Assembly (NCBI GenBank): GCA_050084515.1
Contig: CM114271.1
Coordinates: 23,126,001 to 23,190,000, forward strand
Length of the DNA stretch: 64,000 nt
Direction of reading: 5' to 3'
From: Blasia pusilla
Taxonomy: Eukaryota
A model generated the notes under the pieces. That model ran no database searches. It saw only the letters and a program-made list of their open reading frames with translations, and had not been told where the DNA came from. Shown in pieces: positions 6,327 to 45,543 of the stretch. Each line of letters begins with the position of its first letter. Position 1 is the stretch's first letter. The position numbers were made by a program, and so were the translations under genes.

Positions 6327-7716
6327 TAACACACATGGGAGCCACTTATGAAGGGGCGCACAAGGATCTTGCTAGTATGGGCTTTATGTCTAGTGCGGCT
6401 CAGGTTGAGGTTGTTTTGGTGGTGACTCGGGATGAAGCGAGAAACCCTAAGCCATCGAGAGATGGAGTTGAGATTGACCCATCGGAGGGGACTGATGGGC
6501 GGCAGGCCACGGCTCCACACTCATTCATGTTGTTAGAGGCACTACACATGCCATCGATGCTGCCTCGACAACCACTAGGGCCTATAGGTTAGGCAGGTGG
6601 AGTGGGAGTGGTAGCTCCTATGCCGGCTCGAGTGGAGTCAATTTTGACCACAATGCTAGAGGTGGCCATCAGGGTGAGCTAGGCTCTGCTATTTTCCGCC
6701 ATAGAGTTGGCGATGTTGGGAGTTGGACCAGCTCAATTGTTTTGGTTGGCTGCCACGTTGTATGAGCGTGGAGAGGTGACTACCTCTTGATCAGAGATAG
6801 TTGAAGAGGTGGTGGACTTATCTACGGAGCAGGTGCTCGAGACGTCCCCCACTAAGATATGGCATGCGGCGGCGGAAAAGTTGGTAGATATGCCAGCTCG
6901 ATCGGCCATAGAGGGAGTAGTGGTAACACCTGGCATAGTGTTACTAGATAACCAAGCTGGATTATTTTGCTTGGTTAGTCCGACGGGGACAATGTACCAC
7001 CCGCAGCGCGTCCTACTTGATTCGAGAGTGCAGCCCTTGATGTTAGGGAAGGCGGCGTGTTTAGCGTTGGGGTTACAAAAGGCCGAATTTGAGCCTTGTC
7101 CCTTCCAAATATAGACCTCGATTGGGGGCGTGTCACGGACGCAGTATATGACTCGACAGGATATAGTTTTCAGAGTCCTACCAGAGCATGAGATAGATAG
7201 TGCTATGGTGCGCACACGTGCAATTACGACACCAGTTGAGTCGTACGATGTGTTGGTGGGGAGGACCGTATTATATCCCCTAGGATTCATCCTTGACTTC
7301 AGGGAGGAGACCGTTGCTTATCGACTAGGGTGGAGGTCAGGTGACGGACGGATGAGTTAGTTATCCGTACAGTTTGTCGGGACGAGGTGGTCGACCACAA
7401 AATGAGTATGTGACCACGTTGGCAGCTTTCATAGGTAGTGTTAGCTGGCCATGAGAGTTGTTGGAGGGGAATGCACATTCTGAGGATGTCCTAATAGAGG
7501 ATAGTCTGACGCAAAGATAGGCCATGGTGGATGTCTCTTCCCATGTTGGTGAGACCTCTTCACCATTATGGGGTACGACTCGAGAGCTACAGAGGAGTGC
7601 CCACGACCTTGTGAGGCAAACGTGGAGTCATGACTTTATCCCGGAAGAGCGAGCGTTAGGTGGCGATCGGCTCTTGGAGTGGAGACGTTGACACCATCAG
7701 ATATCACACCTAGTGT

Positions 7717-8700
7717 GGCAGTGTCCAGCGGAGGATGTTAGGGTGTTAGATCGCTTTAGAGGGATTAGATGCGGTGTTGCAAGCGGGCATACGGATGCAT
7801 CAATACCTTTATGTGGATAGAGATAAGACCGCGCGGCCAATATCATTACGTCATATGGCAAGATTGGTCCAGAGGTATCTTGAGTTGTTGCCAATATCAG
7901 CACTATGAGGGTATGAGCATACACTACCCGCGGACATCTCTTTGGTGGGGGCGCAGGATCTGGATAGAGTTGGCACCATTCATTTGGTGATTGTTGGATG
8001 GCCATATCAGGGTCATTCAATAGCTGACCAAGGGTTTCGATTGCACGATCTGAGGTCAGGGATGTTTTGGGAGATGCAATGAGAAATGCAACACTTGGAG
8101 GAGAGTCAGACATGTTCTCCGGCGTACATTTTGGAGAACGTGCCGTTATTGGGAGACACTCATGCACGTGTGATGACAAGTATGCATCAGGTGAGGTCCT
8201 GATTAGGACTTGCTGTGTTGTTAGATGCTGCGCGAGTTGGAGCACGCACCCACCGTCCATGGTTATGGTGGACAAACTTGATACCATCCTAGGTTTAGAG
8301 TCGAGCATATGATGGATTTTAGAGAGCACGACATCTCACAGTGGATGCTATTTTGGGCTCAAGGTGTCAATCTCAAGTGGTGACGCGGTATGATAGACCA
8401 CTGTTGGTGATAGCCAATAGGATGGGGGAGTTGAGGGCAACCTTACCTACATTGGTGAGCTTCCCAGCATCCCATGCCTTTTGTCAAGGAGGGTCAGGCA
8501 TGATTTGGGATGAGGTGACCTGAGCATTGGAGGAGCCTACAACAGATGAGCGCAACTCGCCATGGGGTTCGCTACAAGTACTACGATGGTGCCAGGTATG
8601 ATTGAGGCATGACGGAGATAGGTGCTGGGGCAGGTAATGGACCTCAATTGTCTTACTTGGATAGTCAACCTAGGTATGGCTGAGCAGAGACAGATGCGAG
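7717..8700 (+). pseudogene. Decayed DNMT3-like C5 methyltransferase domain of copy A
   Basis: Hand translation gives WQCPAEDVRVLDRFRGI (motif I), IVGWPYQGHS (motif IV; catalytic Cys codon is TAT at 8005-8007), YILENVP (VI), ERNSPWGS/MGF frameshift region (IX) and VLGQVMDLNCL (X). Confidence 0.85.
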
Positions 8701-10305
8701 TGTCATCCATCCCGTCACGTCCACGAGTTGGAGCATTGCCTACAGGGTCTCTACAGGCATTGGCTGGGGGTGGGACGAGTAGAGATAGGCACCCATGGAC
8801 TTCCTGGGATGTCATTCGAGGGGAGAGTGCAAAAGCGGCCCGAGGAGCACATGTTCAGTTTTTGGATGCAGAGCATGGTGTAGGAGGTTAGAGTGGAGTG
8901 GTTATTGCGGAGGTGGAAAGGGTTGCTACATAACAACCAAAGCCGGAGGTTGCATCCTCTCTAAGTGAGGTCACGATGGAGACTTGGGAGCCTATGATAG
9001 ATCTCAAGTTGACAAGAGGAGAGCAACATCGGATTCATAGGTTTCTAAGAGGGCATGTCAATCGTTTTCCTTCAATATGAGAGACATCGGTACACTGAAG
9101 GGTCTCGGTCCTTAATCTTTCGTCGACCCTACAGGTATTCTGATATGGAGCGAGCCTTGATTTAGAGCATGAGTCAAGACTTGTTGGAGGCAGGACTTGT
9201 GGAGTTATCACATGGGGAGTATACATCTATCACAGTCATATTGGCGAAGAAGGATATGTATGGCAATTGGACAGATAGGCAGATGTACGAGAGGATTACT
9301 AACCTATCAATCGACAGACAAAGTGGGATTGATATGCCATGCCTACTCTTGAGGAGATCTTTGATGCGGTAGGGCATGCAAAGATCTTTAGTACTTTAGA
9401 TCTCCATGCTCGCTATCATCATCTTCCTATCAGGTTGGAGGACAGGGAGAAGACACCATTTTGGGGGATAGATCGATTTGAGAGAGATTGTTTGTATCAG
9501 TGGCGGTTCTTACCATTTGGGTTGAAGAACATGCCTGGAGAGTTTCAGAGAGTGATGGATAGGATTCTGGTTGGCTTGGATTTGTGCGGTATTACATAGA
9601 TGATATTCTTATCTTCAATTCCACGGTTGAGGAGCATGAGCGACACCTGGAGGAGGTGTTTCGGAAATTGCAATTACATGGACTGAAGTTACATCCAAGC
9701 AAGTGCAGATTCTTTTTGGAGCAGATTGAGTACTTGGGACAGACCATATATCTGAGTGGGTTAGGTGTTAAGCAGATAAAGGTGGAGGCACTAGTAGAAA
9801 AAGGGTCATTTTAAACCCATATCATTGTGACTCGTGTTACTTAGAGTCATTTTAATTACTCTTAGTTACTCCGAAACCGACATTGTGACTCGAGAATTAC
9901 TCACACGGTAGGGGAGTCACAATTTGAAACTTATATAACAACATCAAAACATCTAGGAAGCCACTTTAACTTGTATATCAATATTTAAAACCCAGCCATG
10001 TAATGAGCAAAATGAACATTTTATTTCTTCTCTCCATCTTCCAAAGAATGACCTGGATCATTTAACCTACAACTACAATATTATGAAAAAAATGACTAAA
10101 ACTTGTTAAAAGATAGAGAAAAAAGTTACGAAGGTAAGGGAAATAGGGTTTAGGCCCTAAACCCTCTTGAGGTTCAAAAACCCTAACATCACAAGCCCGC
10201 GTCGGCATTTCCCCCTCCCCCATGCCCCAACTCTCTATCTCTCTTCCAGCTTGTGACAGGTCGAGCTTTCTTTGATAGGCTGCATACGAGGCAAGGCAAG
10301 GTAAG

Positions 10306-10479
<174 letters not shown>

Positions 10480-11740
10480 GATATCAAACAAACAAGTTCA
10501 GATATCACAAAAATATCCTGTACAAAAAAATCCCTCCTCAATATGTATGGTGACTTCTTTGTATACTTATTTTTGAACTACTCTTTTGTACTTTAGTAAA
10601 TATTTAGGGTATTCACTTGAATGGAGAGAGAAGTTTTGTTGTCACTGAATACCGGGCTGTTGTAGCCTTGTGCACCATGGAGAGAGAAGTCTTAGGAATG
10701 TAACATCCTTCATGTCTCTGGATGGCATCAGAGTGATGGCGGGTGTTTCTTTCCAACCAATGGTTCAAAACGAGTCAGGGTACTTTTTGTCCAGATTAAG
10801 GAGCCTTCCTTTTGAAGTGAAGGTGAAGATCTTTATCATGAACGGGCCTACTAGTCTCTTGGACCGTATCCTTGCCCTCCCATAATCTACAAGGACAAAC
10901 ATTTGTTACTTTCATGCTTACTCTGACCGTTATTGGACCCCAAATAGGATACAAAGGCACATTAGGAATTGGCTATTCCGCTTAGAAGATCACCACGTGT
11001 ATGTGCGATTTGTAGACATTATTATGTGGAGGGAGGATAGAGGAGCACTATTAGCATGGCTAATGCTTGGGGTCATCCGCAAAGTCACTCTTCATATCTA
11101 TCATGATGCAGGGGGGAATTCTCCCTAGGGAGGATCATCCCATTGTTAGGAAGGCACAAGCCATCATTGAATATGCGCGTTCTATTGGTGGCCACACAGT
11201 AGAGGTTACTCTTGAGTATTGTAATACTTGGGAAGTAGTAACCTCGGGGACTTAGTATGCATTTGCTCAAGTCGTAGAACAATTTCTAGGAAAGTTTTCA
11301 TATGTTGCCTAAACATATGCCGTCATGTTTACAATTCCAAATGTTATCCGTGGATCCATGGTTGCCAATCATGAATTGAGTCACCGTTATTTGTCTTCAT
11401 TGATGGAATTGGGTTTATTTTGAGGGGTCATGGTGTGTGTACACTCTTGACCTTGGACGATAAAAGACGCTATTACGGGGATGTATGCAACCAAATAATT
11501 AATAAGAAGTAATGATTTCTGTAGAAAGAATTGCTTCTTATGCTACTTAACTTTAACTTGTTCTATGTACAGGTACAAACGGTTTGACTATTGGAAATCC
11601 GAGTATCATGAAGGCTAGAGGTAACCTCCACATGCACTGACATCCATTTTATAGTTTTTTTTTCCATGCCTGAATCATGGACATTCAAGATCCATTGAAT
11701 TTCTACATCTAATAGTAATCTTATTGTCTTTTATCTCAAA

Positions 11741-12421
11741 ATGTGGAGTAACCAACGTACAAGGATGGCCCGCCCAAAATACCAGGCCAAGAAAACCTCC
11801 GAGGTGAGCACTTATGCGCCATATAGTGCACTCCAAGTTCTGCAGAAGGCAGCCCATATTTGTGCAATCTGTGATGATGGGGAAGACCTGGTTGTTTGCG
11901 ACGGGCCTTGTGCTAGACACTTCCACGCAATTGCAGAATCAGCAGGGGCTATAGAGAACTCTTGTCCAGGGGTCAACCTCCAACCAAACCACGAAGGGAG
12001 TTGGTTGTGCCAAGATTGTGTGAAGAAAATGGCCAGGTGTACCAAGTGGGGTCTAGAGGGGAGTTTTGCAAAGAGCGAGGATTCTGGGGTTCGTGTGAGA
12101 AAGTGCCCATATACCTTTTGTGTGAGGTTTTTTTGCTTTACTTGTTTGCCTACGGGAGTGGAGTCTTGCCCCATGCAATATTTCCGAGAATGCCATAAGC
12201 ATGATGAGGAGTTGTGGGAGGACATGGTCTATTGTACTAGGTGCCCCACTGCATGGCATTGGACTTGCTTGAAGAAGGCTATGAGCAAGGGTTATGCATA
12301 CGATTGGATTATATATGACCATGCTGCATGTGGTGAGGATAGGTGGTGGTTCTATTGCCACCAGCACAAAGTTCATCCCACACTTCACACTCCTTTGAGA
12401 GATCATATTTCATGGATTTGA
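11741..12421 (+). CDS. EDM2-like composite PHD-finger protein exon inside the CACTA region (possibly decaying)
   Basis: CAICDDGEDLVVCDGPCARHFH...CQDC, followed by further Cys/His clusters CPYTFC..CFTC, CP....CHK, CTRCPTAWHWTC and YCHQH...TPLRDHI. Some ligand positions appear substituted. Confidence 0.7.
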   Translation: MWSNQRTRMARPKYQAKKTSEVSTYAPYSALQVLQKAAHICAICDDGEDLVVCDGPCARHFHAIAESAGAIENSCPGVNLQPNHEGSWLCQDCVKKMARCTKWGLEGSFAKSEDSGVRVRKCPYTFCVRFFCFTCLPTGVESCPMQYFRECHKHDEELWEDMVYCTRCPTAWHWTCLKKAMSKGYAYDWIIYDHAACGEDRWWFYCHQHKVHPTLHTPLRDHISWI

Positions 12422-13090
12422 TTTTCAGGTAGGCGGATGAGAGATTTATGTCTGAACATAATGACGTGGCATTTTGGTGGAGAGTGCAGGGTAGCCACTT
12501 CTGATGTAAAGAGGGTTGAGGCTCTAAACATGCTTACTAGGTAGGTGGTATGACTTTGTATAGAGACTCGTCATTACCTACCCTCTGATTTTGAGAGTTC
12601 CAATCTTTTGAAATTTTGATCGAACGGCCATAATTGCGAAACTATATAATATCACGTTTTGTATCAACATTATGCAGTTTTTTTGTTATGGAAGAATGAA
12701 ATGTAATCGTGGTGGTTTCTAAAAGACTCTTGTAATTAGGCTCTTGATTAGGATATGTCTGGTTGTAGGTGGAATTCTGTATTCATTCGTCATCCATTGC
12801 CATATCCAATCATGCAAGTATAGCTTTAGAGCTAGGTAGTCCATCATGGAAAACCATTGGCAATACAGTACCAATATGAGAATTGTTGAGCTTCCCCCAC
12901 TCCCAAGTGGCGATGTCTCTAAAGTGTTAATCTGTTATGAGACCTCACCCAAATGCGCATCGGGTACGATGCCAACCTCTCTTTTTGCAAGAATTGTAGC
13001 CTGCATCATGGCCTCCCCTGAATTGCCCCATGATGAATGGTGTCGACTTAAGACAAACTTTGTGAAAGCTTTCCCAAGCTCAAAGATGAT

Positions 13091-13410
13091 GTGGCAAAAT
13101 TATTATGCGATTTGGAGATCCATTTTCCTCCCGCCTTCTTTGATGTCATGACTCATCTCGTTATCCATGTTGTGGAAGCGCTTGGACAGTACGGGCATGT
13201 TTATACGAGGTGGATGTTCCCACTGGAGCGTTTTATGAAAGTCTTGAAAGACCATGTCTTGACAAGATACAGGCCTGAGGCCAGCATGGCAATGGGTTAC
13301 ATTTCACACAAGACCTTGGGATATTTGACAGAGTATATGGCGGGGTTTGAACATGTGAAGGCCAAGATATGGCAAGTGGAGGAAGATGAGGGAGTGGTAG
13401 GTGAAGTTAG
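13091..13410 (+). pseudogene. CACTA transposase DUF4218-type fragment
   Basis: LCDLEIHFPPAFFDVMTHLVIHVV...RWMFPLERFMKVLKDHV..RYRPEASMAMGY is a typical Tnp2 C-terminal motif. The fragment is cut at 13410. Confidence 0.9.
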
Positions 13411-16400
13411 TGTTGTTCGGAGATGTGTTAGGCGCTTTATGCATCTCAGGTTTTTGGTTGATGTACCTCTAGCCCATAGTACGGTGTAGCCTCTCCATGC
13501 AGGTGATATTTTCAGGTGCTGCGAGTCCGACTAGCACGTCATCGACCCGCGGCGGAGTAGCTATTGCGTTAGAATTGTGTGGTGGGTTTTGTGGATACAG
13601 GGGGCGCCACGTTTGGTGGATTATGTTACCTTGATTTCCATTTGCGATTGGAGGATTGTCGTTGGCCTTCCTGTGTTGGATCCCCTCCATCGTTGCTTCT
13701 TGCTTGCGCGCCCATTGTTAGGGTTGACGCTGATTTCCAAAGAATGTGTTACTCCTGTGTGCTACCGGTAGTGAGGCTGGAGTGATGACCAGTAGACCGT
13801 GGGAGGCTTCTTGTGGTGATGACAGGTTAGGTTGCCTACACCCATAGCTAGTAGAGCTAGAATAGTATAGCGACATTGACGTCACTTGGTTACTTAGTGG
13901 TGATAATTTGGTGGTGGTGCGGCATTGGCGTTGGTCATCACGGAGCTATCGGGTGGTCTGGTTGGGGGCCGTGGTGCGGACAGTGGTGGTTTCACACGGA
14001 GTGGATTTAGGTATCGGCTAACTTGTCCACTTCCGACGGTTGATGAAGAGGAGGACGAGGGTGTTCCAAACACCGAGTCTCCTACGTTGTTATCGAGTGT
14101 TGCAGCTCCATTGATTTGGGACATGGACGGGATATATGGGGCCATGAAGGGCCCACAACGATACTCAGGTGCAGTGGGCACCATTGAGTTGGAGGACTTC
14201 ATGCAAGAGTTTGATATGTGGTGTGATATGCAGATGTTGCGGAACGCCACGTTGTTTACACCCTTCTTGGCTTGGAAGGGGTTGTTTCAGCACTTGGAGG
14301 GACCACCCATGGATGATAACCATGAGTTTCGGGAGGACCATGTTGCTGAGATTGAGGCGTGGAGACAATATTGGTCTCCAGGCTATGTGTCTATCACCTA
14401 TGGTGGTATTGGTAGTAGTGCTCCTACTAGGCCAGCCAGCCCGACGTTGAGTGGTACGAGTACGAGCCGGAGTAGGGGTACCAGTGGAGGTACCCATGGA
14501 GGTACCAGTGGGGGTACTTGTGGAGGTACTAGTGCCCCACCATCATTTAGCCCGGTTGTAGAGTTCTTCAAGAGGTTGAAGAAGAACTATCAGGGAGTGA
14601 AGAGAGAGAAGTTGAGGAGTTGAGGAGTCTTCAAGAATTTGAGCGAAAGAATGGTGAGAGTCTTCGTGAGGCATACACTCGTATGAGATGCTTGATTTCA
14701 GTTACCCAGGGTGTGACTGAGGCTCAGTCAGTTCAGTTTTGGTATGGGATCTTGGATAGAGAGTTGCGCCGCAGGGTACGTGATGCTACTCTTATGAGTG
14801 ATGATTCACCCACATTGACCCATGTGTTTGCTCTATCTGAGAAGATTGAGCTTAACATGGTGAAGGAGAGAGTGGTGACATCCGCATTCAGTAGGGATAC
14901 AACTACTACTTCTCGTGTTCAGCAGCCCACCTCACAGTCTCGTAGTACTGGTGGTGGTAGTAGTAGTGGGAGTCGTGGAGTGTACACACGACCTCAGTCA
15001 GGTCCTAGAGGGACACTTGCGCAGAGACCATTGCCTTCATTTGCTGCCCCGCAGCAAGGACAGTCATGTTGGACATGTGGAGGTGATCATGTTAGGAAGT
15101 TTTGTCCCCAATAGCATGGGAGACGGACTTTGGAGGATGGGCCTCAGTCGGCACCAACTCAGTGTGATCATTGCAGGAGGCCAGGTCATCCTCGAGAGCG
15201 TTGCTTTATCTTCATCCAGAGTTGAGATCAGGCCGCGGCTGTGGTGGAGTAGCTCCAAGAGGCCGAGGTGGTAGGGGTGGTAGAGGTGGACCAGTGGTTG
15301 GAGAGCCTACGGTGGCCACCCCTACCACTACGACAGAGTCAGCTATGGCTGCCAGGATTGAGCAGTTGGAGCAGAAGTTGGCTACTGTGGTTGGTATCCA
15401 ACATAGATCAAGTTCGGGAGGAGGGGCTTCCACCTCTTATGGAGGGGATGATCTCTCTTATATGGCGAGTGCAGCACATGTTGAGGCATGAGCTACAGTT
15501 ACGAGAGGAGCCACTCGAGCGTCAGAGCCAAGTGGTGCTACTGTGGAGTTGGACCCACAGAGGGGTGAGGCTGGGAGGCAGGCTAGGCTTCCCCAGTCAT
15601 ACTTATTGTCTGAGGTGCTGAGGACTCCATCCATGGTTCCTATGTAGCCTATTGAGCCGACAGTGGGGACTGAGGCATCTATATCGCGTGTAGTAGACAC
15701 GGATGCAACATCTAGTGCAGTATTGCGGATGGCAACTTCAGTGTTGGGATCCCCATTGTTTTCGGCCACAAAGCTGATGGCTTTAGGAGTTGACTTTGCT
15801 CCTGTATTTCAGCTAGCAACCACGTTGTGTGAACGTGGGGGTGTTACTGCTACAGGTGCTGAGGTGGATGAGGGTGTTGCGGTGGAGCGACCCTCTATGT
15901 CAGGTGTAGCATTGAGTACCAGTGCTACTTGGCAAGCAGCAGCGGCGAAGATGGATGCATTACCAGCCCCGCCAGCCATTGATCGTGAGAGGCTTACACC
16001 TGGTGTATGTATGTTGGACAACCGGAGTGGGATATTCCGATTGGTGAGTCCTACAGGACAGGTGTATAGACCATATAGAGTCTTGTTAGACTCTGGTGCC
16101 CAACCTTTGATGTTGGGAAAGGCGGCATGTATTGGTTTGGGTATTCGGAGGTCAGAGCTTGAGCCTTGCCCATTTCAGATTCAAACATCACTTGGAGGAG
16201 CCAATGATGGGTCTCAATTCATGACATGGGAGAAGTTTTCTGTACAGTTGAGACCAGATCATGCGACTAATAGCTCCCGATTGGGAGTATCTGCGGTAGT
16301 CACATCAGCCGAGTCGTATGATGTACTAGTTGGAGGAGCAGTATTGTACCCAATGGGTTTTCAGATGGATTACTGGACTGAGACAGCGTCTTATAGACCT

Positions 16401-16817
16401 GGTTGGCAGTCCGGGGATGGACGTATGATCCATGTTCCTGTGAGATTTATTTATGGGGCTCGACCAGGAGGGTCTTCCCCAACAGTGTTAGCATCTGTGG
16501 CTGGTTTTAGTGGAGTAGTCACTTGGCCAGGAGACTTTTTGGAGGGTAATGTTTCTCCTATGGATTCTCCTATGCATGAGGAGGTAGAGGAGGTCCCTAT
16601 TTTTGCAGCAGTGGCATCCTCATCGTTGGATGTGCCACTTTGGAGTTCACGCGGTGCACTACGGCAGGAGGCTAATCGACTAGTGCAGGAGGCTTGGTGT
16701 GAGGCTGTTATACCTCACGAGGAAGAGGAGGCCCCACGGCGGACTCCTACTTCCGGTCCAGTTGGGTTATCCCCTTTGGATACTACACCCATTGTATGGC
16801 AGTATCCGCCGGAGGGC

Positions 16818-17790
16818 ATTTGTGTGTTAGATCTCTTTGGTGGGATTAGCACTGGTTTGGCTGCAGTGTTGCAGGTCGGTATTCTTGTGCGGAGATACGT
16901 GTATGTAGAGCGAGATAATACGGCCTAGAGAGTCTCATCCTGACATATTGGTCAGTTGATGCGGAGATATCCTGAGTTGTTGCCGCCATCAGTTATTCGT
17001 GGGTACCAGCGTGCTTTGCCGTCACACATTGCATTGTTGGGGGCGTAGGACCTTGAGAGGGTTGGCCCTGTGGATTTGGTGATTTCTGGATGGCCATGTC
17101 AGGGTCATACACGTGTTGGTCGTGGTGAGGGATTACACGACCCTAGGTCTCGATTGTTTTGGGAGATGTTACGGGTGTTACGACATCTTCAGGTTCATCA
17201 GGCACGTGCTCTAGCTTACATTCTAGAGAATGTTCCATTGTTGGGTGACACTCGGACCCGGATGATGCCGAGTGTTCATGAGGTGCGGTCTTGGATTGGA
17301 CCAGCGGTGTTGTTGGATGCAGCGCGAGTTGGCTCGCGTGCACATCGTCCACGCTTGTGGTGGACAAACTTGTTGCCTAGGGAGGTTCTACGTCGAGCAT
17401 ATGATGCAGTGCAGGGGGATCCTTGCCTTACAATGGATAGTATCTTGGATACTGGGCGACTTTCTCAAGTGGTGAGGGTTATTGATCGGTCACCCATGGT
17501 AGTGGTGAACCGTGTGGGCCAACCTAGGATGGCACTATCCACATTTGTGAGTTTTCCCTCGTCACATGCATACAAGGAAGGTGGTCTCGGGCTTGTACGG
17601 GATTCTCATGTGCGACAGTTGGTGGAGCCTAACGCTGATGAGAGAGAGCGTGCGATGGGATTTGCTACTAGTGTGAGAGCGGTTGCTTCCATTTCTGAGG
17701 CTTCACGACATCATGTGTTGGGTCAGGCCATGGACCTGAATTGTTTGACTTGGATTTTGAGTCTTGGTATGGCCGAGCACCGTCAACTCC
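16818..17790 (+). pseudogene. DNMT3-like C5 cytosine methyltransferase domain within pol of copy B
   Basis: Motif I VLDLFGGI, II YVYVERD, IV ISGWPCQG (Cys codon 17097-17099), GLHDPRSRLFWEM, VI YILENV, VIII RAHRPRLWWTNL, IX ERERAMGF, X VLGQAMDL. Three in-frame stops at 16926, 16941 and 17046. Confidence 0.93.
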
Positions 17791-20700
17791 GGACTATGTT
17801 TGTGGGTCTTCCACCCCTTGTAATGAGTTCGATGGCTACCGGGACGGTAGAGGCATCGGCTGGGGGCGAGGAGAGTAGTATTTTGCATCCTTGGAGTAAA
17901 TGGGATGTAATGGCTGGGCATGTGGAGTTGGTTGCTCATGCTGGTGGAGGAGTTATTTGCTCAGATGATGGTGTAGCTAAGGGTGTACCATCTTGTGAGG
18001 GGGTTGCGTAGCAGCCAATGGCATCGTCCTCTCCCTCTAGTGTGCCAGTGGAGGAGACTTGGGAGCCATTACTTGGGCCCAAGCTTACGGGAGGTGAGAA
18101 ACGACGTTTGACACAGTTCCCACGTGCTTATAGGAGTTGTTTTGCCTTTAGCATGAAGGAGTTGGGTTCTCTGGTGGGACCTGATATACTGATTGATTTG
18201 GCTAGTGATACGCCAATCTTCCGTCGTCCCTACCGATATAGTGATATGGAGAGGGACCTGATTCAGAGTAGGACGTTGGACCTTTTGGAGGCTGGATTAG
18301 TGGAGTTGTCGCATGGAGAGTATGCATCAGCCACTGTCATGCCTGCTAAAAAGGATATGCATGGCAACTACACGGATAGGCGGATGTGTGGAGATTACCG
18401 GCCTATCAATCGGCAAACCAAGGCCGATAGGTATGCCATGCCTACACCTCATGAGATCTTTGATATGGTGGGACAAGCAGAGATTCTCAGCACTTTGGAT
18501 CTTCGGGCAGGATACCATCAATTGCCGATTCGGGAGAGTGACAAGGCCAAGACAGCATTTTGGGGTGTCAACTCTCATGGCAAGGATTGTTTGTACCACT
18601 GGAAATTCTTACCCTTTGGGTTAAAGAATGCACCAGCCGAGTTTCAGAGAGTGATGGACAGGATCCTAGAAGGGTTGGATTTTGTTTGGTGTTACATTGA
18701 TGATATCTTGGTGCTCAGTAACACGGTGGAGGAGCATCAGATACATTTGCAGATGGTGTTTGAGCGGTTGAAAGCTCATGGTCTACGTTTGCATCCAGGA
18801 AAGTGTAAGTTCTTCCATGAGGATGTTGAGTACTTGGGTCATGTGATCTATCCAGGTGGTTTGGAAGTTCAACAAGCAAAGGTGGAGGCTATTGCACTTA
18901 TTCCGCGTCCGGTAGATGTGAGTAGAGTTCGAGCATTCATGGGATTGGCGAACTAATATTAGAGGTATGTGAAGGGATTTAGTGCCATGGCAAAGCCTTT
19001 GAACCAATTGCTGAAATCAGATCAAGAGTGGCATTGGGGAGATGATCAGGAGAGAGCTTTTGTGGAGCTTAAGGCCAAGTTGGTGGCGGCGCCTATCTTG
19101 AGGAGATCTATCAGAGGGCGCCCATTTCAATTACACACTGATTGGAGTAGTTTGGGACTTGGAGCGGTGTTGACACAACATGATGATGAGCACATGGAGT
19201 TTGTGGTGGCCTATGCAAGTCGTTCGAATAATGCATCGGAGTTGCGCTATAGTTCATATGAGGGAGAGTGCTTGGCAGTAGTGTGGGTTGTGGCACACTT
19301 TAGGTGTTACTTGTTTGGCACACAGTTTACCCTTGTTACTGATCACCAGCCGCTCAAGTGGTTGATGGAGTCTGACAAGCTTACAGGGAAGCTTGCACGG
19401 TGGGCTCTTATCTTACAGGATTATGACTTCTAGGTGGTACATAGACCTGGAGTTGCCAACCTTGATGCTGACGGGTTGAGTAGGAACCCATGTACTAGCC
19501 AAGAGGATACAATTGGGGCTAGATGGCATGGCGAGGTTGATGAGGAGATGGTGCCAGGTTGGCATGCATCCGCCTTTTTATGTTGGTTAGAGGTGGACTC
19601 TAGTATGGAGGACCACATGATATCTTACTCTAGTCAGAGGGTAGATGGCCAGCCTTCAGATCCTAAGGTGGGAGATGGTGGTACGGATCAGCGTGATATT
19701 CATGATGATGCGTTGGTGTTGGAGTTCCTACGGACCAGTAGGGTGCCAGGCATAGTGTGTGCCAAGGAGCAAGACCATGTTCTTCAACGTGCTAAGAGGT
19801 ATCAATTGGAGGGAACACATATTCTCCGTGTGTTGGAGGATAGTAGAGTACGAGTAGTGCCGCATTTGGCTCAGAGAGAGTACATTGTGCGACATGCCCA
19901 TGAGGAGTTGGGACATTTTGGGGTAAAGCGTACGTATAGCTTACTCCTTGGTCAGTATTGGTGGCGTGGCATGCATACTCAGGTGCAGCAGTTGGTGTCA
20001 TGTTGTATGGTTTGTGACCGGGTGAGGGCATCATTCAATGCCCCTACACCACAATTACACCCCTTGCCTATTATGGGGTTGGGTTACCGTTGGAGTGTGG
20101 ACTTTTGGACCCGTTGCTGTTGGTATTGCGACATCATCGATATGTGTTGGTGATGGTGGAGCACTTCTCCAAGTGGATTGAGTTGGTGGCATTACCTGAC
20201 AAGGCAAGTGAGGGAACGGCGTATGCGTTTCTTGATAGAGTGCTTAGTCATTTTGGTGCACCAGTTGAAGTGCTGACCGACCAGGGTACAAAGTTTCAGG
20301 GTGAGTTTCAGGTCTTGTGTGACAAGGCGTTGATTGATCATCGGACCACGTCTCAAGATCATCCAGAGGCATATGGTTTGGCTGAGCGTGTGGTTCAGAC
20401 GATGAAGAGGGCATTGCGCAAGTATGGCCTACAGAAGGGGCATCTTGGTGACAAGGATATTCAGTTGTCATGGTTAGCCATGGGGTATAGGTTCAGTCGC
20501 CAAGCATCCTTGGCTTCCTTCTCACCTTATTTTCTATTATACGGCCAAGATCCAGACTTGCCAACAGCAATTCGTCGGGAGTCTAGTGAGGTGGTGAACT
20601 TTGATGACCCAGAGATGTGGATGAGGGTGTGTTCTCAGCGGGCAGAGCTCTTTCGGAGAGTTATGACAACAGCCTTTGAGAATCTTGCCATTGCTCAACA

Positions 20701-20995
20701 TAGAGATACGTTGCGGTATGCAACCATTTGGGGTGGAGGTTATCGACCATCGATTCGTAGGTTCCATGTGGGGGACTATGTCTATTTGCAGCAGATTGCA
20801 CCGACAACCTTGGATGTGACGGCAGACCGCACTATTTTACGAGTGCGCGAGGTGTTAGCTTCTGGAGTTCTCATGTTCGAGGGTCGTGATGGAGTTGTTT
20901 GGAAGGACCATGTGCGTAATTGTGCGCCATGTCATCTTCCAAATGTGGATGGTACTGTTGACCCAAGCTTAGCCATGATACGTGCTAGCTTGAGG

Positions 20996-21133
20996 TGCAT
21001 GTTGTGTGGGTCTGCTGGTAACGCAGCCCGTATGTTGGTGTGTGATCGTTGTTCTAGGGGTTGGCACATTATGTGTTTGACTCCACGTATGGATGTTGTT
21101 CCTAGTGGAAGGTGGGTTTTTCCTCGATGTACT
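20996..21133 (+). other. PHD finger at the integrase C-terminus of copy B
   Basis: CMLC...MLVCDRCSRGWHIMCLTP....PSGRWVFPRC follows the C4HC3 pattern, with the penultimate Cys replaced by Phe. Confidence 0.85.
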
Positions 21134-21417
21134 TAGGAGAGGTAGATGACTTGATCTTTGCATGATATGGATTATAGATGTGCGACTAACGATGGAGCAA
21201 CCTAGCACCCGGCCTTCTGATTCGTGCACCCAAGAAGGTGTATAGCATGTAGTAGATGTATAGGGCTACCTAGGAGTTAGAGAGACCTAACCGCCAGTTA
21301 GGGAGGCGAGTTGTGGTACACTTGTGTTTGTGAATGCTCTCGTCTATGTTATGTATGTATGTGAGTATGGTATGTCAGCGATGTATGTTGTATGACGATG
21401 TGGATTCGCACGACAGT

Positions 21418-21764
21418 TGTCATGACCATACGGATTATGTCGTAGAGTATAGTGTGCTAGTAGAGGCCATACCTTATGTAGGGCATGGTGTCTAAGGTAG
21501 AGATGCGATTTCATACATAGGGTTGGGGGTTACTCAGTTGAGGGTGAGCTTTCCAGTAGGGCCCGCTCTTAGGTTGGAGGATATATGGTGGAGTGCACTC
21601 AAAGAATAGTCAGTTCTTTGAGTTGAGCCTGTTGCGTTGGGAGCTAGCCTTAGTAGTGAGTAGAGCTCTTTGCTATGGTATTTCCCGCAAGCTTCGACCT
21701 AGATTCTCCCGTCGTGGAGTAGGTTTGGCTTGATTGTATGTGATTCTATACGTGTTTTATGACA
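21418..21764 (+). repeat. Candidate 3' LTR of copy B
   Basis: Termini TGTCAT...ATGACA are inverted. The start is at the position equivalent to the LTR start in copy D. No second copy is present to confirm it. Confidence 0.5.
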
Positions 21765-21927
21765 GTAGGTCTTTCACGGATTTCAGTTGTGGTACACTTG
21801 TGTTTGTGGATGCTCTCGTCTATGTTATGTATGTATGTGAGTATGGTATGTCAGCGATGTATGTTGTATGACGATGTGGATTCGCACGACATCTTTCACA
21901 GCCGGGTGACTTGTTCAGGAGGAGCAA

Positions 21928-22202
21928 TAAGAGGAGAGGAAGAGAGGAAGAGAGGAAGAGATGAGAGAGGAGAGAGGAAACTACCTTCAACCCAAAGAGA
22001 TATTTTTTTTGAAGAGAGTTTCCTTTGATTTGAAGAGAGTTTCCGTTGGGTTGAAGAAGGAAACTTTGGTCTGAATTTTTTGCATTTTTGTTCTCAGTGT
22101 TTAAGCACTCCAACAGAATTTTTTTTCCTCTTCCATATTTTGGCAACCCACCTGAATCCGACGGGTTGCAATTTGCACAAAATTTTAAAAACTAAAAAAT
22201 CA
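21928..22202 (+). repeat. Terminal fragment of the MULE-like family (homologous to 36925-37201)
   Basis: About 275 bp near-copy: TAAGAGGAGAGGAAGAGAGG...AAACTACCTTCAACC...CCGACGGGTTGCAA. Confidence 0.85.
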
Positions 22203-22209
22203 AATCACC

Positions 22210-23505
22210 TCTATGATGATGAAATGGTTGTTGATGAAAGTGGGACTGAGAATATTAACCTCAATAAAACCAATGATCCCAATATCCCATCTGATTTTCA
22301 GGAACTTGCTGCAGCATGCAAGCCACTCTTCCTAGGAGCGAAGAGTTCTTTATTTGCATTTGTTATGCTCCTTTTCAATGTTGGTGCTACCCATGGGGTC
22401 CCCAATATTGTAATTGATGAGATATTGAAACTCCTATGTAAGATGGTACTCCCATCTGAAAATCTTGTCCCACCATCATACTATGCAGCAAATAAACTCA
22501 TTAGTAAACTTGGTTTGAGCTAAAACTCTATACATGCGTGCCCTAAAGGGTGTGTTCTATTTCGAGGGGAATTGGAAGATGGAGAAAATTGCCCAAAGTG
22601 TGGGAATGCTAGGTTCAACCAAGTCGGGAAATCTTTAGTACCAAACAAGGTATTGAGACACTTCCCTATAATCCCTAGGATGCGGCAAATGTATAAGTGT
22701 AGGGCTTTGTCAGAGTTATTGATCAAATCTTCCAAAAACAAGAGTAAGGATGGCATGTTGAGGCATGTAGGAGACAGCAAGGCTTGAAATCATATTGATT
22801 GTTTATACCCAGACTTTGTTGTAGAGAGTAGGAATTGTAGGTTTGGTTTGGCACTTGATGGTGTCAATCCATACTCTGATAAGGCTAGCTCATGGTCAAC
22901 ATGGCCAATCCTATTGGTTAATTACAATTTGCCAGCTTGGCTTCAAACCAAGAAGTTTTTGTCATGTTGGCTCTTATCATACATGGCAAGGAGAGTGTGA
23001 ATGGAGAAAATATCAACACTTTTTTGGCCCCCTTGGTAGAGGAGTTTAGGGAGTTGTGGAATGGAATTGAATTCCAAGATGTTTGTAGACCACACAGGTA
23101 TTTGGGGTTCAAATTTAGAGCCATGATATTGTGGACTATAAATGATTACCCAACATATGGCACAATCTCAAGGCAAAGCCATGGTGGGACACTCGCGTGT
23201 ACAGTATGTGGACCTTATATGCATTCGTATTTCTCCAAACTATGTGGAAAGCCCATATTTGGTTGCCATCGAAGACATCTTCTAGTAGACCATGTTTGTA
23301 GAGGACGAGCTTACGGCTTCCAATTCAATGATGAAGGAGAAACTAGACCAGCGCCTCCAAGAATTACAATTGATCAAATTCTTAGATGGGCGGAGGAGAA
23401 AAAACATATGATGACAAAGGTGTTTGAGAGGATGCTCCTACTAATCCATACAAGAGGACGGGAGTGAAGCGGCGAAGTATTTTGTTTGATTTTCCATATT
23501 GGAAA
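22210..23505 (+). pseudogene. CACTA Tnp2/Transposase_21 catalytic region, disrupted
   Basis: IHACPKGCVLFRG, CPKCGNARF, KVLRHFPIIPR, LALDGVNP, STWPILLVNYNL, FLAPLVEE, LWTINDYP and CTVC motifs, with stops and frameshifts. Confidence 0.92.
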
Positions 23506-25267
23506 GTATCCAACATCATGTTTATTTCTGGTTTTCCCGTTTGAAGTGTATCTTTGCTTGCTGATCTATAAATATTTATATATGTATATATATATTTCCT
23601 TGGCCTGAAAGTAGGATCTTCTAATATGACACACCCTAGATGTTAGCATGTGGAGAAAAAAAATCTCTGAAAATATAGTTAAGACTCTAAGGTTGTGACT
23701 TTAAATCACAATGGACTGGGAGGTTTAGAGGGGTTATCTGTAAGTTCTCCTTAGCTTTCATTTCTTTTATATTGAATAATTTTGCAACTTAATTTCAAAT
23801 TGGTAACATTTGTTAATTTTTACTATTTATAATATGATTCATGGGTTTCTAAATATGTAGGGCAGAGGTGGATCAACCACGCCAACAAGTATAGGTGTTA
23901 TTGAGAATGGACAAAGGGAAAAGCAAGAGAGCCTTGTAAGTTAACTCTCCTTATGTCTATATTCTTTTACTACATTGAGATTTCTGTTGTTGCATCAGAG
24001 CTTCTCATACTACTATGTATTCATTCTCCTTGGTTTGTATGTATGAAAACTATAGGCTTGAGGACTAACGAGCCTCAACAAGAAACACCAGCAACGAGTG
24101 AGAGCCTCTTCACTTGAGGTTCACAAGTGAGTATTGACCTATGTGTTATATCTTGCTTCAGTGTTTGATTTATTTTCATACAATTAGTGCTAAGTGAAGA
24201 GTATAAGCATATATTTATTTGATTTCAGATGAGTGTTGAGTCCATCATAAGTACCCAACTTCTGAAGGTAGAGAAGAAATGGAGTGAAGATATGGAAGTC
24301 ATAAAGGGTGATCTTGATTAGAAATTGGAGAGGAACCAACTTCTTTGGGAGAAGAAGATGAACCTGAACCAATCCAATCCTTGATAGAGGAGAAGTTGGA
24401 GAAGAAAAAAAAGGAACAGAAAGAGGCCTTCTCCATGCTTGTTGAAATTATCAACAAGCTTTCAGAGAACAGGAGGCATAAAGTGCATACATCCGGTCCA
24501 TCTAGGGGCCTTACTACGAGTCAACAAGATGGTAAGAGCTCTCTCTTGAGCAATCTAATTTTGAAACATTTGGTAATCAAATTACCTATAAATTCATGAC
24601 CCTTCCTTTTAAATTGTATGGCAAGCCGTGCTAGTCTTGAGGATAAGCATGCAGGTCTTGGAGCAGATGTTGTGGGTGTGGAGAAGGAGGTATCAAGGGA
24701 GTTACATGGGCGAAGCCATGTCACTCAAGCTAGTAAGTGTTGAGTTCAATCTGTTTCCTTTGGTTGATTCCATGTACATGATTCCTTATAGTCATGATTT
24801 ATTGTGTTTCTTATAAACAATGTTGTTGTATGATAAACAACAAGTGAAATGAAGTGAAATCCTCTTTGCCCTCTAGTAAAAACAGACGAGCAACCCTCTT
24901 AAGTGTGCTTATCTTCCCATTTTTTGTTGTTGTCTCTATTTTTTCTATCAATTTTGATACCCCATGGGCAGATTTGATTGTTGCAGAGAACCAGTCTTCT
25001 CCACAAAAAAAAAAGTGTTACAAGAGTGTTATTTGAAGCCATTCAAGCAGCAAGTAGTGAACAAGACAATGATCTCAAGTCATGGAGCAACAAGAAACAC
25101 ACAGGGAAGGTATATACACTCGAAAAAAACACATTTTTGGTTGCCATAATCAGAACTTAGTTCTACTGCTATTGTATTATACCTGAGATATCAGATCCCG
25201 ATAATACTTTGGAGTGTTTGTCCAATATGTGTCTATAATGACTCATCCTTGTATCTTGGGTTTGCAG

Positions 25268-27189: not shown

Positions 27190-29510
27190 GCTTCGCTAAA
27201 CCCTGAGTCCTATTTGGGTGCACAAGATGGACGACTGAGATAGAGGACCGCATAAGTTTTTGGGAGTTGCGGGTACTATAGAGTTGCACGACTTCATTAC
27301 GGAATTTAGGAGTTGGTGTGACTCTTAGAGGGCCAAGAACTCTAGAGAGTTCAATCCTTTTATGGCATTGAATGGGATGTTCCAACACCTACAAGGGGAA
27401 CCCATGGATGATTACCATGAGTTTTCCTAGAGGTGTACACATGAGATTGAAACATGGAGACTCTATTATGATCCATATTATGTGTCATGGACTAAGCCAT
27501 TTCCATATAAAGAGGAGGAGCTAAGGGAGGCTACTTCCTCTACCACTAGTGAAAATCAAGGAGGGAAGAGTCAGAATGGGGCGGTTGCATCATCCACTCG
27601 GGTTTGTCCTAGGCTCAACCCCATGGTTGAGTTCTTTGCGGAGTTGCGGAGAAACTACCAAGGATACGAATCGAGAAGTTGCGGAGTATCCACGACTTCC
27701 ATAGGGGTACATGGGAGAGTTTGCGAGAGATTTTTACTTGTCTACATCATCTTATTAGTGTCACTCAAGGATGATAGAGGCCAAGGCCATTCAGGCATGG
27801 TATGGGATACTGGAACAAGACTTGCAAAAACGGGTGAGGGATGCGGTACTTCTGTTGCGCACCCCTCCCCTACGTTGGGAGATGTCTTTGAGGTAGTAGA
27901 GTATATTGAATGCAACATGGTCGAGAAGAGTGTAGCAGCCATGGGTCATGCGCAAGAGTAGTCAGGATTGCACACAACACCAATGTAGCAATGTGGATTT
28001 TGAGAGGGAGGTTATCATGAGCATGTGCCACAGCAACCTATGTCATCATATGCGGGTCAGCAATAGCCACTAAGAGTTATTTATTGGGTATGTGGTGGAG
28101 CCCATTGTCAACAATATTGCACGTGTCAGTGTGGTAGATACGTGCCCCAACCTAGAGGATGAGATGGGCTTGCACCAAGAGTATATCACGATCAATGCGA
28201 TCATTATCAACAATATGGTCATACATATGTTAGGTGCTTTAGTTGATATCTAGAGTTACATCTGGACCAAGGGCCATAGAGGGCACTTGAGCAAATTTGG
28301 GGTCTTTGTGGGCCTAGAGGTTGTGTGTTAGGTGGTCTTGCATGGGGGCCATGGAGTTGGATTTTCCCGTGGGGGTGGTGGATTTTCCCGTGGGGGTGGT
28401 GGATTTTCCCGGAGAGGAGGTAGAGGTCTGCCACCTAGATGAGCTAATCAAGGGAGACTTGGAGCATGAGGGTGGGATGGCTACTTAGATAGAGCATTTG
28501 CGACAGAAGATTGCCGTGATGGCACTAAGGTTACCCGATGCCGATCAGTGCCATCGACATCATATGGCGCAACTAGAGATATGTAGGATCCTGGTTGGAT
28601 CTATAGAGCTACACAAATCGAGGCATCCATTATTATAACACATGGAGTAGTTGAAAAGTTGGATCCACAAAGAGGGGAAGCCAGGAAATAGACCAGGATT
28701 CCTTAGTCTTTTATTTTGTCCAAGGCGATGAGGACATCGATGGGTCTTAATCAGAGTTCCCAGAGAGTGGATGTTGTTAATTGGTATGCAGACACCAAGG
28801 ACGAGGGGAGAAGCGAGTGTCACGACTCTTATTTCTGATGCTCAGGAGGAACCCATGTCTAGTATGTGGTTGGGGGCACCACTACTATGTATCCCGCCCC
28901 ATGGTTTTCACTTGGCTGCTACACTATGTGAGCATGAAGATGGTGTAACTGCCTCACGTTTAGAGGTGGTTGAAGAGGAGGTGGTGGACCTACACTTGGA
29001 GTTTTCCTTGGGTTATTGGGAGGAGTAAAAATCCTATAGACTAGGATGGCAGTCAGGTGATGGGCGACTTAGCTTGTACTTGTTTGATTCACGAGTGGAG
29101 TGATTGAGCGATAGTTAGGAGAAACAAAAACTCTGGCAACCTTTAGTAGCCCCATCACATGGCCCAACGATTTGATGGAGGGTCATGTATATGTGGAGGA
29201 TACACTCGTGACTTACACCCATATGGAGAGGAGTGTTATGGTTGCAGCATCATTCCGTGGAGGAGAGTGTCTTTGTGGGGCTCGAGTGAGGAGCTTTGAC
29301 GCTTGGCTGATGAGCACGTGTAGATGGCATGGAGTGAGGCATTTGCACCAAAGCGTGACGGGTCAAAGAAACCCGAGGTAGCCGAGGGTGCTACGATGTC
29401 ACCTTTTGACACCGCACCCATTGTGTTGCGTATCTTAGAGGAGTGTATTCGAGTGTTGGATCTATTTTGAGGGATCAATATTCAGTTGGTTGATGTTTTG
29501 CAGGCATGCC
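27190..29510 (+). mobile_element. Gypsy-DNMT family copy C, strongly decayed (gag, partial PR region, start of MTase)
   Basis: NPMVEFFAELRRNYQG, PTLGDVFEVVE.IECNMVE, YRLGWQSGDGR, and at ~29400-29510 PFDTAPIV...IRVLDLF*GI (MTase motif I). Collinear with copy B. Confidence 0.8.
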
Positions 29511-30486
29511 TACGCGTGCGACGGTACTGGGGGGCCAAGGGGGGAAGAGAGTTTTTTTTTTTGGGGGGATTTCAAAAAGAGAAATTGGTTGGAAAGCTGG
29601 TGCCAGCGTAAGTTCAGCCAACGGTTTGAGCCGGAAGTCATCTTCTTGGAATAACATGTGAGACCAAGAAGATGCCCCATGCGACTTGGCCCTTACTATC
29701 TAGTTCCCTTTTGTATGGAAGTTTCTTGCCCTAAACCTCAAGATCCACATCCAAGATGTAAATTTTTCCATCATGAATTTTCCATCATCATCCTTTTTCT
29801 ACTTGGTGCCTCCTTCTACTCTCTCATTTCATTTTTTTAACATGTTGTTGACCTTGTTACGGCCCCTATAATAATAGACTCGAATGCCAAGCCCGCAAAA
29901 TGCAAATTATTCTTCAAGGTTCTCAACCCTCGGATATGAATGTTTTAACAATAAAACGAATGTAAACTCCACATGAATGAGAAGGTGTTAGGTATTAATG
30001 CTCTCGTTAATACCAATCTCTCATGCTGTGTGGCCAGCAGGTTTTTGGCTCTTTATGCCCCCCCCTCCTTTGTATCCCCATGGGTTTTCTATTAAAGTTT
30101 ATATTCTTTCTCCCAACCTCTAAACATATGGCCGGCAATCTCAACTCTGGACTGTTTTAGTTCCGATGGTATACATGCTTCCAAACCTCCAAAGGATTCA
30201 TGAAATTCGAAACCGGGGGTTGGTTCGTATATGCGTTTTATTTTTACAAATAACTTTTTTTATTTTATCTCACGGCCTCGATCTTTCCGATCTGCATATT
30301 AGCGGATGTGGGTGGCTAAGTTAGGGTTGCGGTCTAGTTCGCACTGAGGAGGAGTCGCAAGCTCATGGACATAAATTTAGTGTAAGAACGAAGTGGTCTT
30401 GGTCTGCTGCGATTGCGGCGGTGGATAGTTTATTTTGTTGAAACGTTGTGTCGAGTTAGGAACGGGAACGAACTGCGAGAAACACC

Positions 30487-45542: not shown

Positions 45543-45543
45543 A

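Follow-up and report, generated by a model that had tools for sequence, protein, structure and literature searches.

Why should a retrotransposon carry an enzyme for the methylation of cytosines? Dinoflagellates and one charophyte alga are known to have cytosine methyltransferases borne by transposons, for a purpose that is still open. The question is raised again by a stretch of 64,000 nucleotides from Blasia pusilla (assembly GCA_050084515.1, contig CM114271.1, positions 23,126,001 to 23,190,000, forward strand), which was analysed at its full length and is called the window here. Positions 13490-21891 of its plus strand represent a dead, 5'-truncated copy (copy A) of a Ty3/gypsy-type retrotransposon with a DNMT3-like methyltransferase (MTase). 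The family of this copy is the bryophyte counterpart of the KnitGypsy-Dnmt3 element of Klebsormidium nitens, to which it is likened by domain content and repeat layout from the published description. We have high confidence in the parts of this picture, i.e. the domains, the likeness to DNMT3, the selection, the conserved stop and the repeats, and in the kinship in kind with the Klebsormidium element.

The methyltransferase and the element around it

Six C5-MTase motifs, numbered I to X as in the DNMT literature, follow each other between 16824 and 17735 of the plus strand in the non-permuted DNMT order, and they share their reading frame (frame 0) with the protease and the reverse transcriptase (RT). 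These are motif I VLDLFGGIS (16824-16850), motif IV GWPCQG (17088-17105), motif VI ENV (17226-17234), motif VIII AHRPRLWWTNL (17340-17372), motif IX ERERAMGF (17640-17663) and motif X LGQAMD (17718-17735). A preliminary description of the locus, made from the sequence alone, had reported this motif set in frame with a protease DSG and an RT YIDD, and its coordinates could be confirmed. The whole C5 cytosine MTase domain spans 16812-17774 (+), as delimited by the motifs, Pfam, a search of solved proteins and the fold of a relative. The Pfam model PF00145 (DNA_methylase) scored 31.1 bits against a cut-off of 22 (E 2.2e-7), with an aligned part that covers motifs IV-VI only; relatives reached 34-53 bits.

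When the window domain was compared with the PDB by phmmer, with in-frame stops written as X, DNMT3A (1.6e-13), DNMT3B (6.5e-12) and DNMT3C (6.6e-11) ranked far above DRM (3.7e-5), HaeIII (4.2e-4) and DNMT2 (0.04). A profile built from 20 family members gave the same order among solved proteins, with 1.1e-20 for DNMT3A, 1.3e-18 for both DNMT3B and DNMT3C, 2.5e-9 for DRM, 4.3e-6 for HaeIII and approximately 3e-4 for DNMT2; neither DNMT1 nor a chromomethylase was present among the 54 sequences at E<=0.01. The AlphaFold model of a relative with 73% identity (P0002) had a mean predicted local distance difference test score of 61 and a predicted template modelling (TM) score of 0.67, with core blocks at 80-90. 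Foldseek searches with this model returned DNMT3A or DNMT3B throughout the best 50 matches (top E 2.7e-13, TM 0.71 on the target). Judged by sequence and predicted fold, and in a ranking among solved structures only, the MTase is closer to DNMT3 than to DRM, DNMT1, chromomethylases, DNMT2 or bacterial enzymes, as the preliminary description had proposed when it set the non-permuted domain apart from DRM. The ESM Atlas adds a nearest cluster labelled 'Streptophyta', and the remaining matches there were generic C5-MTase clusters. Two observations speak against a plain assignment to DNMT3: motif IV reads PCQ in the window MTase and PCN in DNMT3A in the phmmer alignment, and neither a PWWP nor an ADD domain was found by Pfam in the window element or in the relatives scanned. 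The region N-terminal of the MTase, where a canonical DNMT3 has PWWP and ADD, is occupied here by Gag and protease. All of 24 diverse family members that were compared retain the catalytic Cys (PCQ) and Glu (ENV).

The element around the domain shows the Ty3/gypsy order of Gag with a CCHC knuckle, protease, RT, RNase H and DDE integrase, into which the MTase is set between protease and RT. Frame 0 from 15648 onwards encodes, in sequence, the protease, the six MTase motifs, RT, RNase H and the integrase zinc domain, as seen in the translated open reading frames (ORFs). Copy A begins with a remnant of the 5' leader (13490-14122, weak collinear matches to a second window copy, B); its 5' part is cut at approximately 13490, and neither the upstream repeat A1 nor the remainder of the leader is present. 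In a complete relative from metagenome data, L078, approximately 1.1 kb of leader lie between A1 and gag. The gag region of copy A (14123-15207) was traced by tblastn with residues 1-348 of a Marchantia ORF1 protein (P0121) at 63-66% identity, in frame 2 and then frame 1, and is damaged by two frameshifts and one stop; its CCHC knuckle CWTCGGDHVRKFC was found in the ORF list at approximately 15067-15105. The retropepsin active-site motif LLDSGAQ lies at 16083-16103, at a place homologous to the Asp_protease_2 domain that Pfam detects in the relative P0136. Downstream of the MTase, the conserved end of ORF1, TAG CAG CCA (18009-18017), is recognized from the sequence, from homologous ORF ends and from metagenome loci. 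It is followed by RT and RNase H (18012-19424, with YIDD at 18693-18704; RVT_1 3.3e-31, RT_RNaseH 3.1e-35), the zinc-binding domain and DDE core of the integrase (19872-20362; Integrase_H2C2 9.4e-15, rve 7.9e-12), a PHD finger at the integrase C-terminus (20996-21130; PHD 5.2e-8) and the 3' terminal repeats B1-A2-B2 (21309-21891), the latter defined by self-comparison and alignment to L078. All these features are on the plus strand. Hence, the Gypsy assignment of the preliminary description holds, and the element reads as Gag-protease-MTase, a stop of the putatively leaky type, and RT-RNase H-integrase-PHD.

Three frameshifts and seven disabling stops, the TAG at 18009 not counted, have accumulated in copy A. 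The frameshifts were located by tblastn near 14615 and between 15207 and 15336, both in gag, and near 20033-20105 in the integrase. One of the stops is in gag; the MTase contains 16926 TAG, 16941 TGA and 17046 TAG, the three that had already been pointed out, and 18954 TAA, 18960 TAG and 19431 TAG affect RT and RNase H, the last one just beyond the range of these domains. It must be mentioned as a point against a functional reading that copy A is unable to make any of its proteins; this copy is dead and performs no function itself. The stop-making changes are the ordinary decay of methylated DNA. One-strand hypermutation was considered as a source of the stops and rejected, since copy-specific C>T and G>A changes occur on both strands; in L078 they account for 31 and 37 of 95 copy-specific changes. 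A separate observation concerns base usage at third codon positions, where the sense strand is strongly depleted of C in both window 15648-20153 and 321-6809 of the relative L048 (C 12-15%, T 31-34%, G 28-34%), compared with approximately 25% of each base in an AMP-binding host gene of the window. As the nearly intact L048 shows the bias too, decay is not its source, and the family must have had it over the long term.

The termini differ from those expected for Ty3/gypsy elements. Instead of two identical flanking long terminal repeats, relatives possess the layout A-coding-B-A-B, from which the window copy keeps B-A-B: B1 at 21309-21415, preceded by a purine-rich tract at approximately 21298-21310, A2 at 21416-21784 and B2 at 21785-21891. 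A 5' partner of A2 was found neither in 13300-14200 nor in the self-comparison of 11000-24000. The B1-A2-B2 end of copy A aligns with that of L078 at 73% over 722 nt. L078 shows the complete series of A1 (1676-2017), leader (approximately 1.1 kb), ORF1 (3159-6873), stop (6940), ORF2 (6943-10060), a purine tract immediately before B1, B1 (10238-10350), A2 (10350-10691) and B2 (10693-10805), and B-A-B ends also occur in L012, L041, L043 and L076. In L078, B1 and B2 are 93.8% and A1 and A2 92.1% identical. In copy A, B1 and B2 agree at 106 of 107 positions (99%) despite the many coding lesions, and this near-identity could result from gene conversion or from the copying of an already defective template. 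The layout 'A-coding region-B-A-B' is described as typical of DIRS elements in the main text of de Mendoza et al. (2018; Nat Commun 9:1341), which ascribes DIRS-like repeats combined with Gypsy domains to the Klebsormidium Gypsy-Dnmt3 as well. Because this oddity is shared together with the DNMT3-like domain, we consider the bryophyte family to be of the same kind as KnitGypsy-Dnmt3.

Spread, selection and domain orders of the family

The family is abundant in this region of the genome, with four copies or fragments within 64 kb. Copy B (2401-9793, +), identified by repeats and tblastn, is heavily decayed and contains approximately 2.7 kb of unrelated DNA at 3650-6382; its MTase lies at 7762-8574 and its RT extends to 9793. 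Copy D (27242-29527, +) is a decayed fragment from gag to the MTase N-terminus, found by tblastn of P0121, and copy C (44961-47674, -), likewise identified by repeats and tblastn, comprises the integrase-PHD part of a related element together with its 3' terminal region. The preliminary description had proposed to look for the MTase in other copies of this lineage, and remnants of it are indeed kept in copies B and D.

A metagenome scan confirmed 170 stretches, from which 80 loci with MTase-containing relatives were kept (the L-numbered loci). Among proteins of 195-622 amino acids, 165 matched at E<=1e-3 (best E 8.5e-173, 79% identity), and the named hosts among the 120 of them listed were Marchantia polymorpha, M. 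paleacea, Riccia sorocarpa, Calypogeia fissa and three Sphagnum species. A further 35 matches came from proteins of 825-2627 amino acids, including 15 gene models of M. polymorpha and one each of Sphagnum fallax, Haematococcus and Monoraphidium. A profile search of 1.84 billion representatives resulted in 494 clusters (50% identity) at E<=1e-30 and 2178 at E<=1e-10.

Codons of partly decayed copies, aligned via tblastn with stop codons skipped, were used to estimate the ratio of nonsynonymous to synonymous substitution rates (dN/dS). Copy A and L005 gave 0.22 for the MTase and 0.20 for the RT (dS approximately 0.7-0.8), copy A and L013 gave 0.20 and 0.14 (dS approximately 0.7). Thus, the MTase is under purifying selection across the family, with a strength close to that of the RT. 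The estimate is weakened by close copy pairs, which showed 0.56-0.76 for the MTase and 0.36-0.48 for the RT, a pattern to be expected when copies decay after insertion. Most copies are dead: motifs IV, VI and IX stand in a single open frame in just 5 of the 80 loci. Since window copies A, B and D and the 80 loci all contain the MTase, with dN/dS of approximately 0.2, we regard it as a family-wide coding part and not as a later insertion.

Mapping with local domain queries in the 108 collected proteins of at least 900 amino acids revealed two architectures. The order of the window element (Gag-protease-MTase, or MTase before RT), which we call type I, was found in 35 of them, for example in P0125 (Pfam: MTase 460-529, RVT_1 833-919) and P0136 (protease 693-740, MTase 991-1071). 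The other 73 show RT-RNase H-MTase-integrase, in part followed by PHD (type II), as in P0150 (RVT_1 202-327, RNase H 418-521, MTase 857-952, integrase 1261-1426, PHD 1640-1684); the named type II hosts are represented by gene models of Haematococcus (Haematococcus lacustris P0154, P0253 and P0322). Type II relatives have in common with the window family the MTase family (33-41% identity), the integrase-PHD end and the type of RT and RNase H, but have one long frame in which the MTase follows RNase H and precedes the integrase. In a FastTree phylogeny of 184 MTase domains, a single change separates the two layouts, and the window clade unites 70 rows (34 type I, 36 untyped, no type II) with a Shimodaira-Hasegawa-like support of 96.

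The fusion of integrase and PHD finger ends both layouts. The nearest solved PHD fingers to the one in the window are those of CHD4, KMT2C/D, ATXR5, DPF2/3 and KDM5A/B, and many PHD fingers of these types read the unmodified H3 tail. A chromodomain (PF00385) accompanies the PHD finger on the integrase side in two of 25 relatives, the type II proteins P0323 and P0329, which links the lineage to chromoviruses.

The ORF1 stop and the possible fate of the enzyme

Comparison of homologous sequences identifies the TAG at 18009 as the natural, conserved end of ORF1 and not as damage. The ORF1 proteins P0121, P0122, P0124 and P0127, from Marchantia and metagenomes, terminate at the residue aligned with '...EGVA*' of the window, P0126 and P0130 terminate two residues before it, and other subgroups possess their own conserved end soon after the MTase, e.g. 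'PKVFA' or 'LSATK'. The preliminary description had placed the MTase in the pol polyprotein and had excluded a later insertion. The latter part stands, given the family-wide presence of the domain; a single pol does not, since the conserved stop separates Gag-protease-MTase from RT-RNase H-integrase-PHD and the MTase therefore belongs to ORF1.

The junction could be analysed in 58 of the 80 metagenome loci, those with a single in-frame tblastn alignment and at least 20 amino acids on each side. A stop is present in 55 of them, in frame with the RT (TAG 38, TAA 17; the other codons are TAC in two loci and GAG in one), and the following six bases are CAACCC in 55, CAACCA in two and CAACCT in one. 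Copy A with TAG CAG CCA fits the pattern UAG-CAR-YYA; copy B reads TAA CAA CCA (8931-8939), L048 TAG CAA CCA and L032 TAA CAA CCA. The nearly intact L048 encodes gag-protease (957 amino acids), MTase (438) and at least 766 amino acids of RT-integrase in a single frame that is interrupted by just two stops, the junction TAG and one other. The linker peptides vary by lineage (EGVA|QPMASS, RVAT|QPKPEV, PKVAA|QPVLKS), whereas the stop and CAR-CCN are constant; the conserved UAG of the family thus has the plant-type leaky context UAG CAR YYN. The downstream frame is continuous with ORF1 across the stop in the 58 loci and in two window copies, and the RT shows dN/dS of 0.14-0.20. As the RT has been selected in lineages that all bear the stop, it must be translated past the stop. 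According to the review by Firth and Brierley (2012; PMC3542737), tobamovirus-type readthrough is signalled by UAG_CAR_YYA, and CARYYA is also effective after UAA and UGA. From these sequence patterns, readthrough would be the simplest route past the ORF1 stop, and we think that it probably takes place at low frequency.

On this assumption, most ribosomes would halt at the UAG and release Gag-protease-MTase, and a minority would continue to the full fusion with RT-RNase H-integrase-PHD. Because most translation would end at the UAG, the MTase would be produced at Gag-like levels and carried into the particle within the Gag precursor, from which the protease would free it there. As its leading function, we tentatively predict, at less than even odds, that the freed enzyme methylates the new cDNA of the element before or at integration. 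By analogy with the chromodomains of chromoviruses, the PHD finger of the integrase may steer insertion to a particular state of the histone H3 tail, a real possibility that we rate somewhat short of an even chance.

Several observations count against readthrough. The hexamer CAACCC of most loci departs from CAR-YYA at the last base, TAA replaces TAG at the junction in 17 loci and a sense codon does so in three of 58, and RNAalifold with 11 junctions detected no supported RNA structure downstream of it (-10.1 kcal/mol, with compensatory changes in 2 of 19 pairs and a covariation term of +0.23). In most loci an ATG also follows two codons past the stop (18018-18020 in the window), which makes reinitiation possible. 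The stop could accordingly be a true terminator, with RT-RNase H-integrase-PHD made by reinitiation at the downstream ATG, from a spliced or subgenomic RNA, or by supply in trans. This ATG, 6 nt past the stop, starts the third residue of the QPM... peptide found in at least 55 of 60 junctions, the junction is skipped in the gene model P0125, where MTase and RT are joined, and the missed last base of the signal in 55 of 58 loci points in the same direction. However, the ATG is missing in L048 (QPVLK) and window copy B (QPKPE), and stop-CAR-CCN is kept in all four deep lineages. Separate initiation would not need the frame that RT and ORF1 always share, and reinitiation after an ORF of approximately 3.8 kb is unexpected without special signals. 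We consider a true terminator rather unlikely.

Alternatives to the methylation of the element's cDNA also have to be weighed. DNMT3-type enzymes act on chromatin DNA, and the PHD finger of the integrase resembles readers of the H3 tail, so the MTase may instead modify the DNA of host chromosomes, whether at the site of insertion or beyond it, or the integrated copy, where silent chromatin would limit harm or mask the element; an effect at the insertion site is discussed in the main text of de Mendoza et al. (2018). Fusion to Gag would, however, place the enzyme first in a cytoplasmic particle, and a chromosomal target seems to us a doubtful, if serious, candidate. Still less probable is that the domain methylates the genomic RNA of the element, as DNMT2 does with tRNA, or that it has a non-catalytic, structural role. 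RNA methylation was raised for a DNMT borne by a long interspersed nuclear element, and assays of the Klebsormidium domain in yeast, although inconclusive, yielded no methylated DNA (both in the main text of de Mendoza et al., 2018), but DNMT2 stands far below DNMT3 in the phmmer and profile searches (0.04 against 1.6e-13, and 3e-4 against 1.1e-20), and the invariance of the catalytic Cys and Glu argues against a non-catalytic role. Finally, the MTase stretch could be a fragment of a host DNMT3 or a chance in-frame insertion, or the related gene models could be domesticated host genes, in line with Marchantia and Sphagnum records that label relatives as ordinary (hypothetical) proteins. For the window copy, a host-gene fragment or chance insertion is refuted by the same order in other window copies and loci: Gag-protease-MTase-stop-RT recurs in three window copies, with copy D reaching only the MTase N-terminus, and in dozens of loci. 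Dozens of loci also carry terminal repeats and transposon-like decay, and type I accounts for 35 of the 108 long proteins. We regard this last group of explanations as extremely improbable.

Neighbouring sequences and known systems

Copy A is flanked by pieces of CACTA-type DNA transposons on the plus strand. The upstream piece (12840-13489) contains a DUF4218 match (13052-13489, E 5.4e-24) that abuts the 5' edge of copy A at approximately 13489; the downstream piece (22029-23467) matches Transposase_21/tnp2 (E 3e-27). Positions 21928-22202 are repeated at 36925-37201 with 88% identity. The 24-31 nt just after B2 of copy A (21892-21922) recur at 561-591 and, on the minus strand, at 45448-45471, and these two recurrences lie at the start of a block of approximately 520 nt with 82% identity between 552-1072 and the 3' side of copy C. 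This block may be a further element end at the start of the window, a preferred target or a longer terminal region of a sub-lineage. Directly after the truncated copy B follows a long (GA/TC)n microsatellite (10187-10577), and an open frame of 240 amino acids rich in Cys and His (11699-12421, +) gave several weak PHD-type matches, all under the Pfam cut-offs. Two open frames at 51884-53561 (+; PF00501 5e-59, PF13193 3.6e-22) probably belong to a host gene whose product is an AMP-binding (acyl-activating) enzyme. The minus strand of 37290-41254 contains four long open frames of 212-311 amino acids and is possibly another mobile element; the three frames scanned, all except 38158-38796, were without a Pfam match at E<=0.001.

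How new is such an element? A transposon-borne DNMT3 of streptophytes is already in print for K. nitens, and the precedents in dinoflagellates and Klebsormidium that the preliminary description had named are both found in de Mendoza et al. (2018, main text). In passages of papers from 2025-2026, 'streptophytes (Gypsy-DNMT3)' are cited as a known kind. The preliminary description knew of no well-characterised land-plant family; no DNMT-bearing retrotransposon of bryophytes or other land plants is described in the main texts found, and the main text of de Mendoza et al. (2018) does not mention Marchantia, but the supplements of that study and of Sarre (2025) may list copies, and relatives are already present in databases as unnamed or 'hypothetical' gene models of Marchantia, Sphagnum, Calypogeia and Riccia. 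What may be new are the land-plant range, the placement in ORF1 with a conserved stop of the leaky type and, in green algae, the second architecture.

Elements of this kind are thus abundant and diverse in land plants. One of its hosts, Marchantia polymorpha, is a model with genetics, methylomes and intact copies, which moves the question of purpose to a testable system. The placement of the MTase before a leaky-type stop predicts the amount and destination of the enzyme, and the two domain orders offer a natural comparison. It is conceivable, at what we judge to be a small chance, that a single old lineage of green plants and green algae carries a whole 'epigenetic kit', in which a DNMT3-type enzyme supplied via the leaky stop would methylate the cDNA before it reaches the nucleus and the PHD finger would pick H3K4-unmethylated chromatin, so that new copies arrive looking silenced. 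In that case, bryophytes with intact copies, such as Marchantia, could owe a measurable share of their genome methylation to transposon-borne enzymes, and the capture could no longer be seen, as it has been in print, as peculiar to Klebsormidium.

Among known systems, a similar in-frame UAG readthrough arrangement is the gag-UAG-pol of gammaretroviruses. Tobamovirus-type (type I) readthrough (Skuzeski, 1991, as cited in Firth and Brierley, 2012) likewise relies on an in-frame UAG with six bases of 3' context, beyond which a polymerase is encoded and produced as a minor fusion, as proposed here from sequence; the window family differs by the protease and MTase upstream of the stop and by CAACCC in most relatives. 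Chromoviruses and PHD-bearing retrotransposons (the latter cited in de Mendoza, 2019; PMC6673714) share the chromatin-reader module at the integrase C-terminus, but are without an MTase.

Two elements described in the main text of de Mendoza et al. (2018) come closest. SymbioDIRS-Dnmt3 of Symbiodinium contains a DNMT3-like domain in a retrotransposon with A-coding-B-A-B repeats, as in the window family, and its domain methylated CG de novo in yeast; in contrast to the window family, it has a tyrosine recombinase, no DDE integrase and no Gag-protease-MTase frame, and its host is a dinoflagellate. With KnitGypsy-Dnmt3, the likeness extends to a non-rearranged DNMT3-like domain within a Gypsy-type coding region and to the A-coding-B-A-B repeats known from relatives of the window copy. 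Two points weigh against this kinship: no K. nitens protein occurred among the 120 listed of the 165 short matches or the 35 long ones, and a search of longer proteins with a 24-sequence profile gave no Klebsormidium relative in its 25 matches. A point against an enzymatic role is that no member is known to be active; the one published test of the Klebsormidium domain, made in yeast, had an inconclusive outcome (de Mendoza et al., 2018). The capture in KnitGypsy-Dnmt3 is described there as specific to the K. nitens lineage, whereas the named hosts of the window family are liverworts and Sphagnum. The window family also differs by its MTase, which lies in ORF1 upstream of a conserved stop of the leaky type, and by the PHD finger at the end of its integrase. 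Both families show purifying selection on the methyltransferase, with a published Ka/Ks of less than 0.2 for KnitGypsy-Dnmt3 (de Mendoza et al., 2018) and 0.20-0.22 for the deep pairs of the window family.

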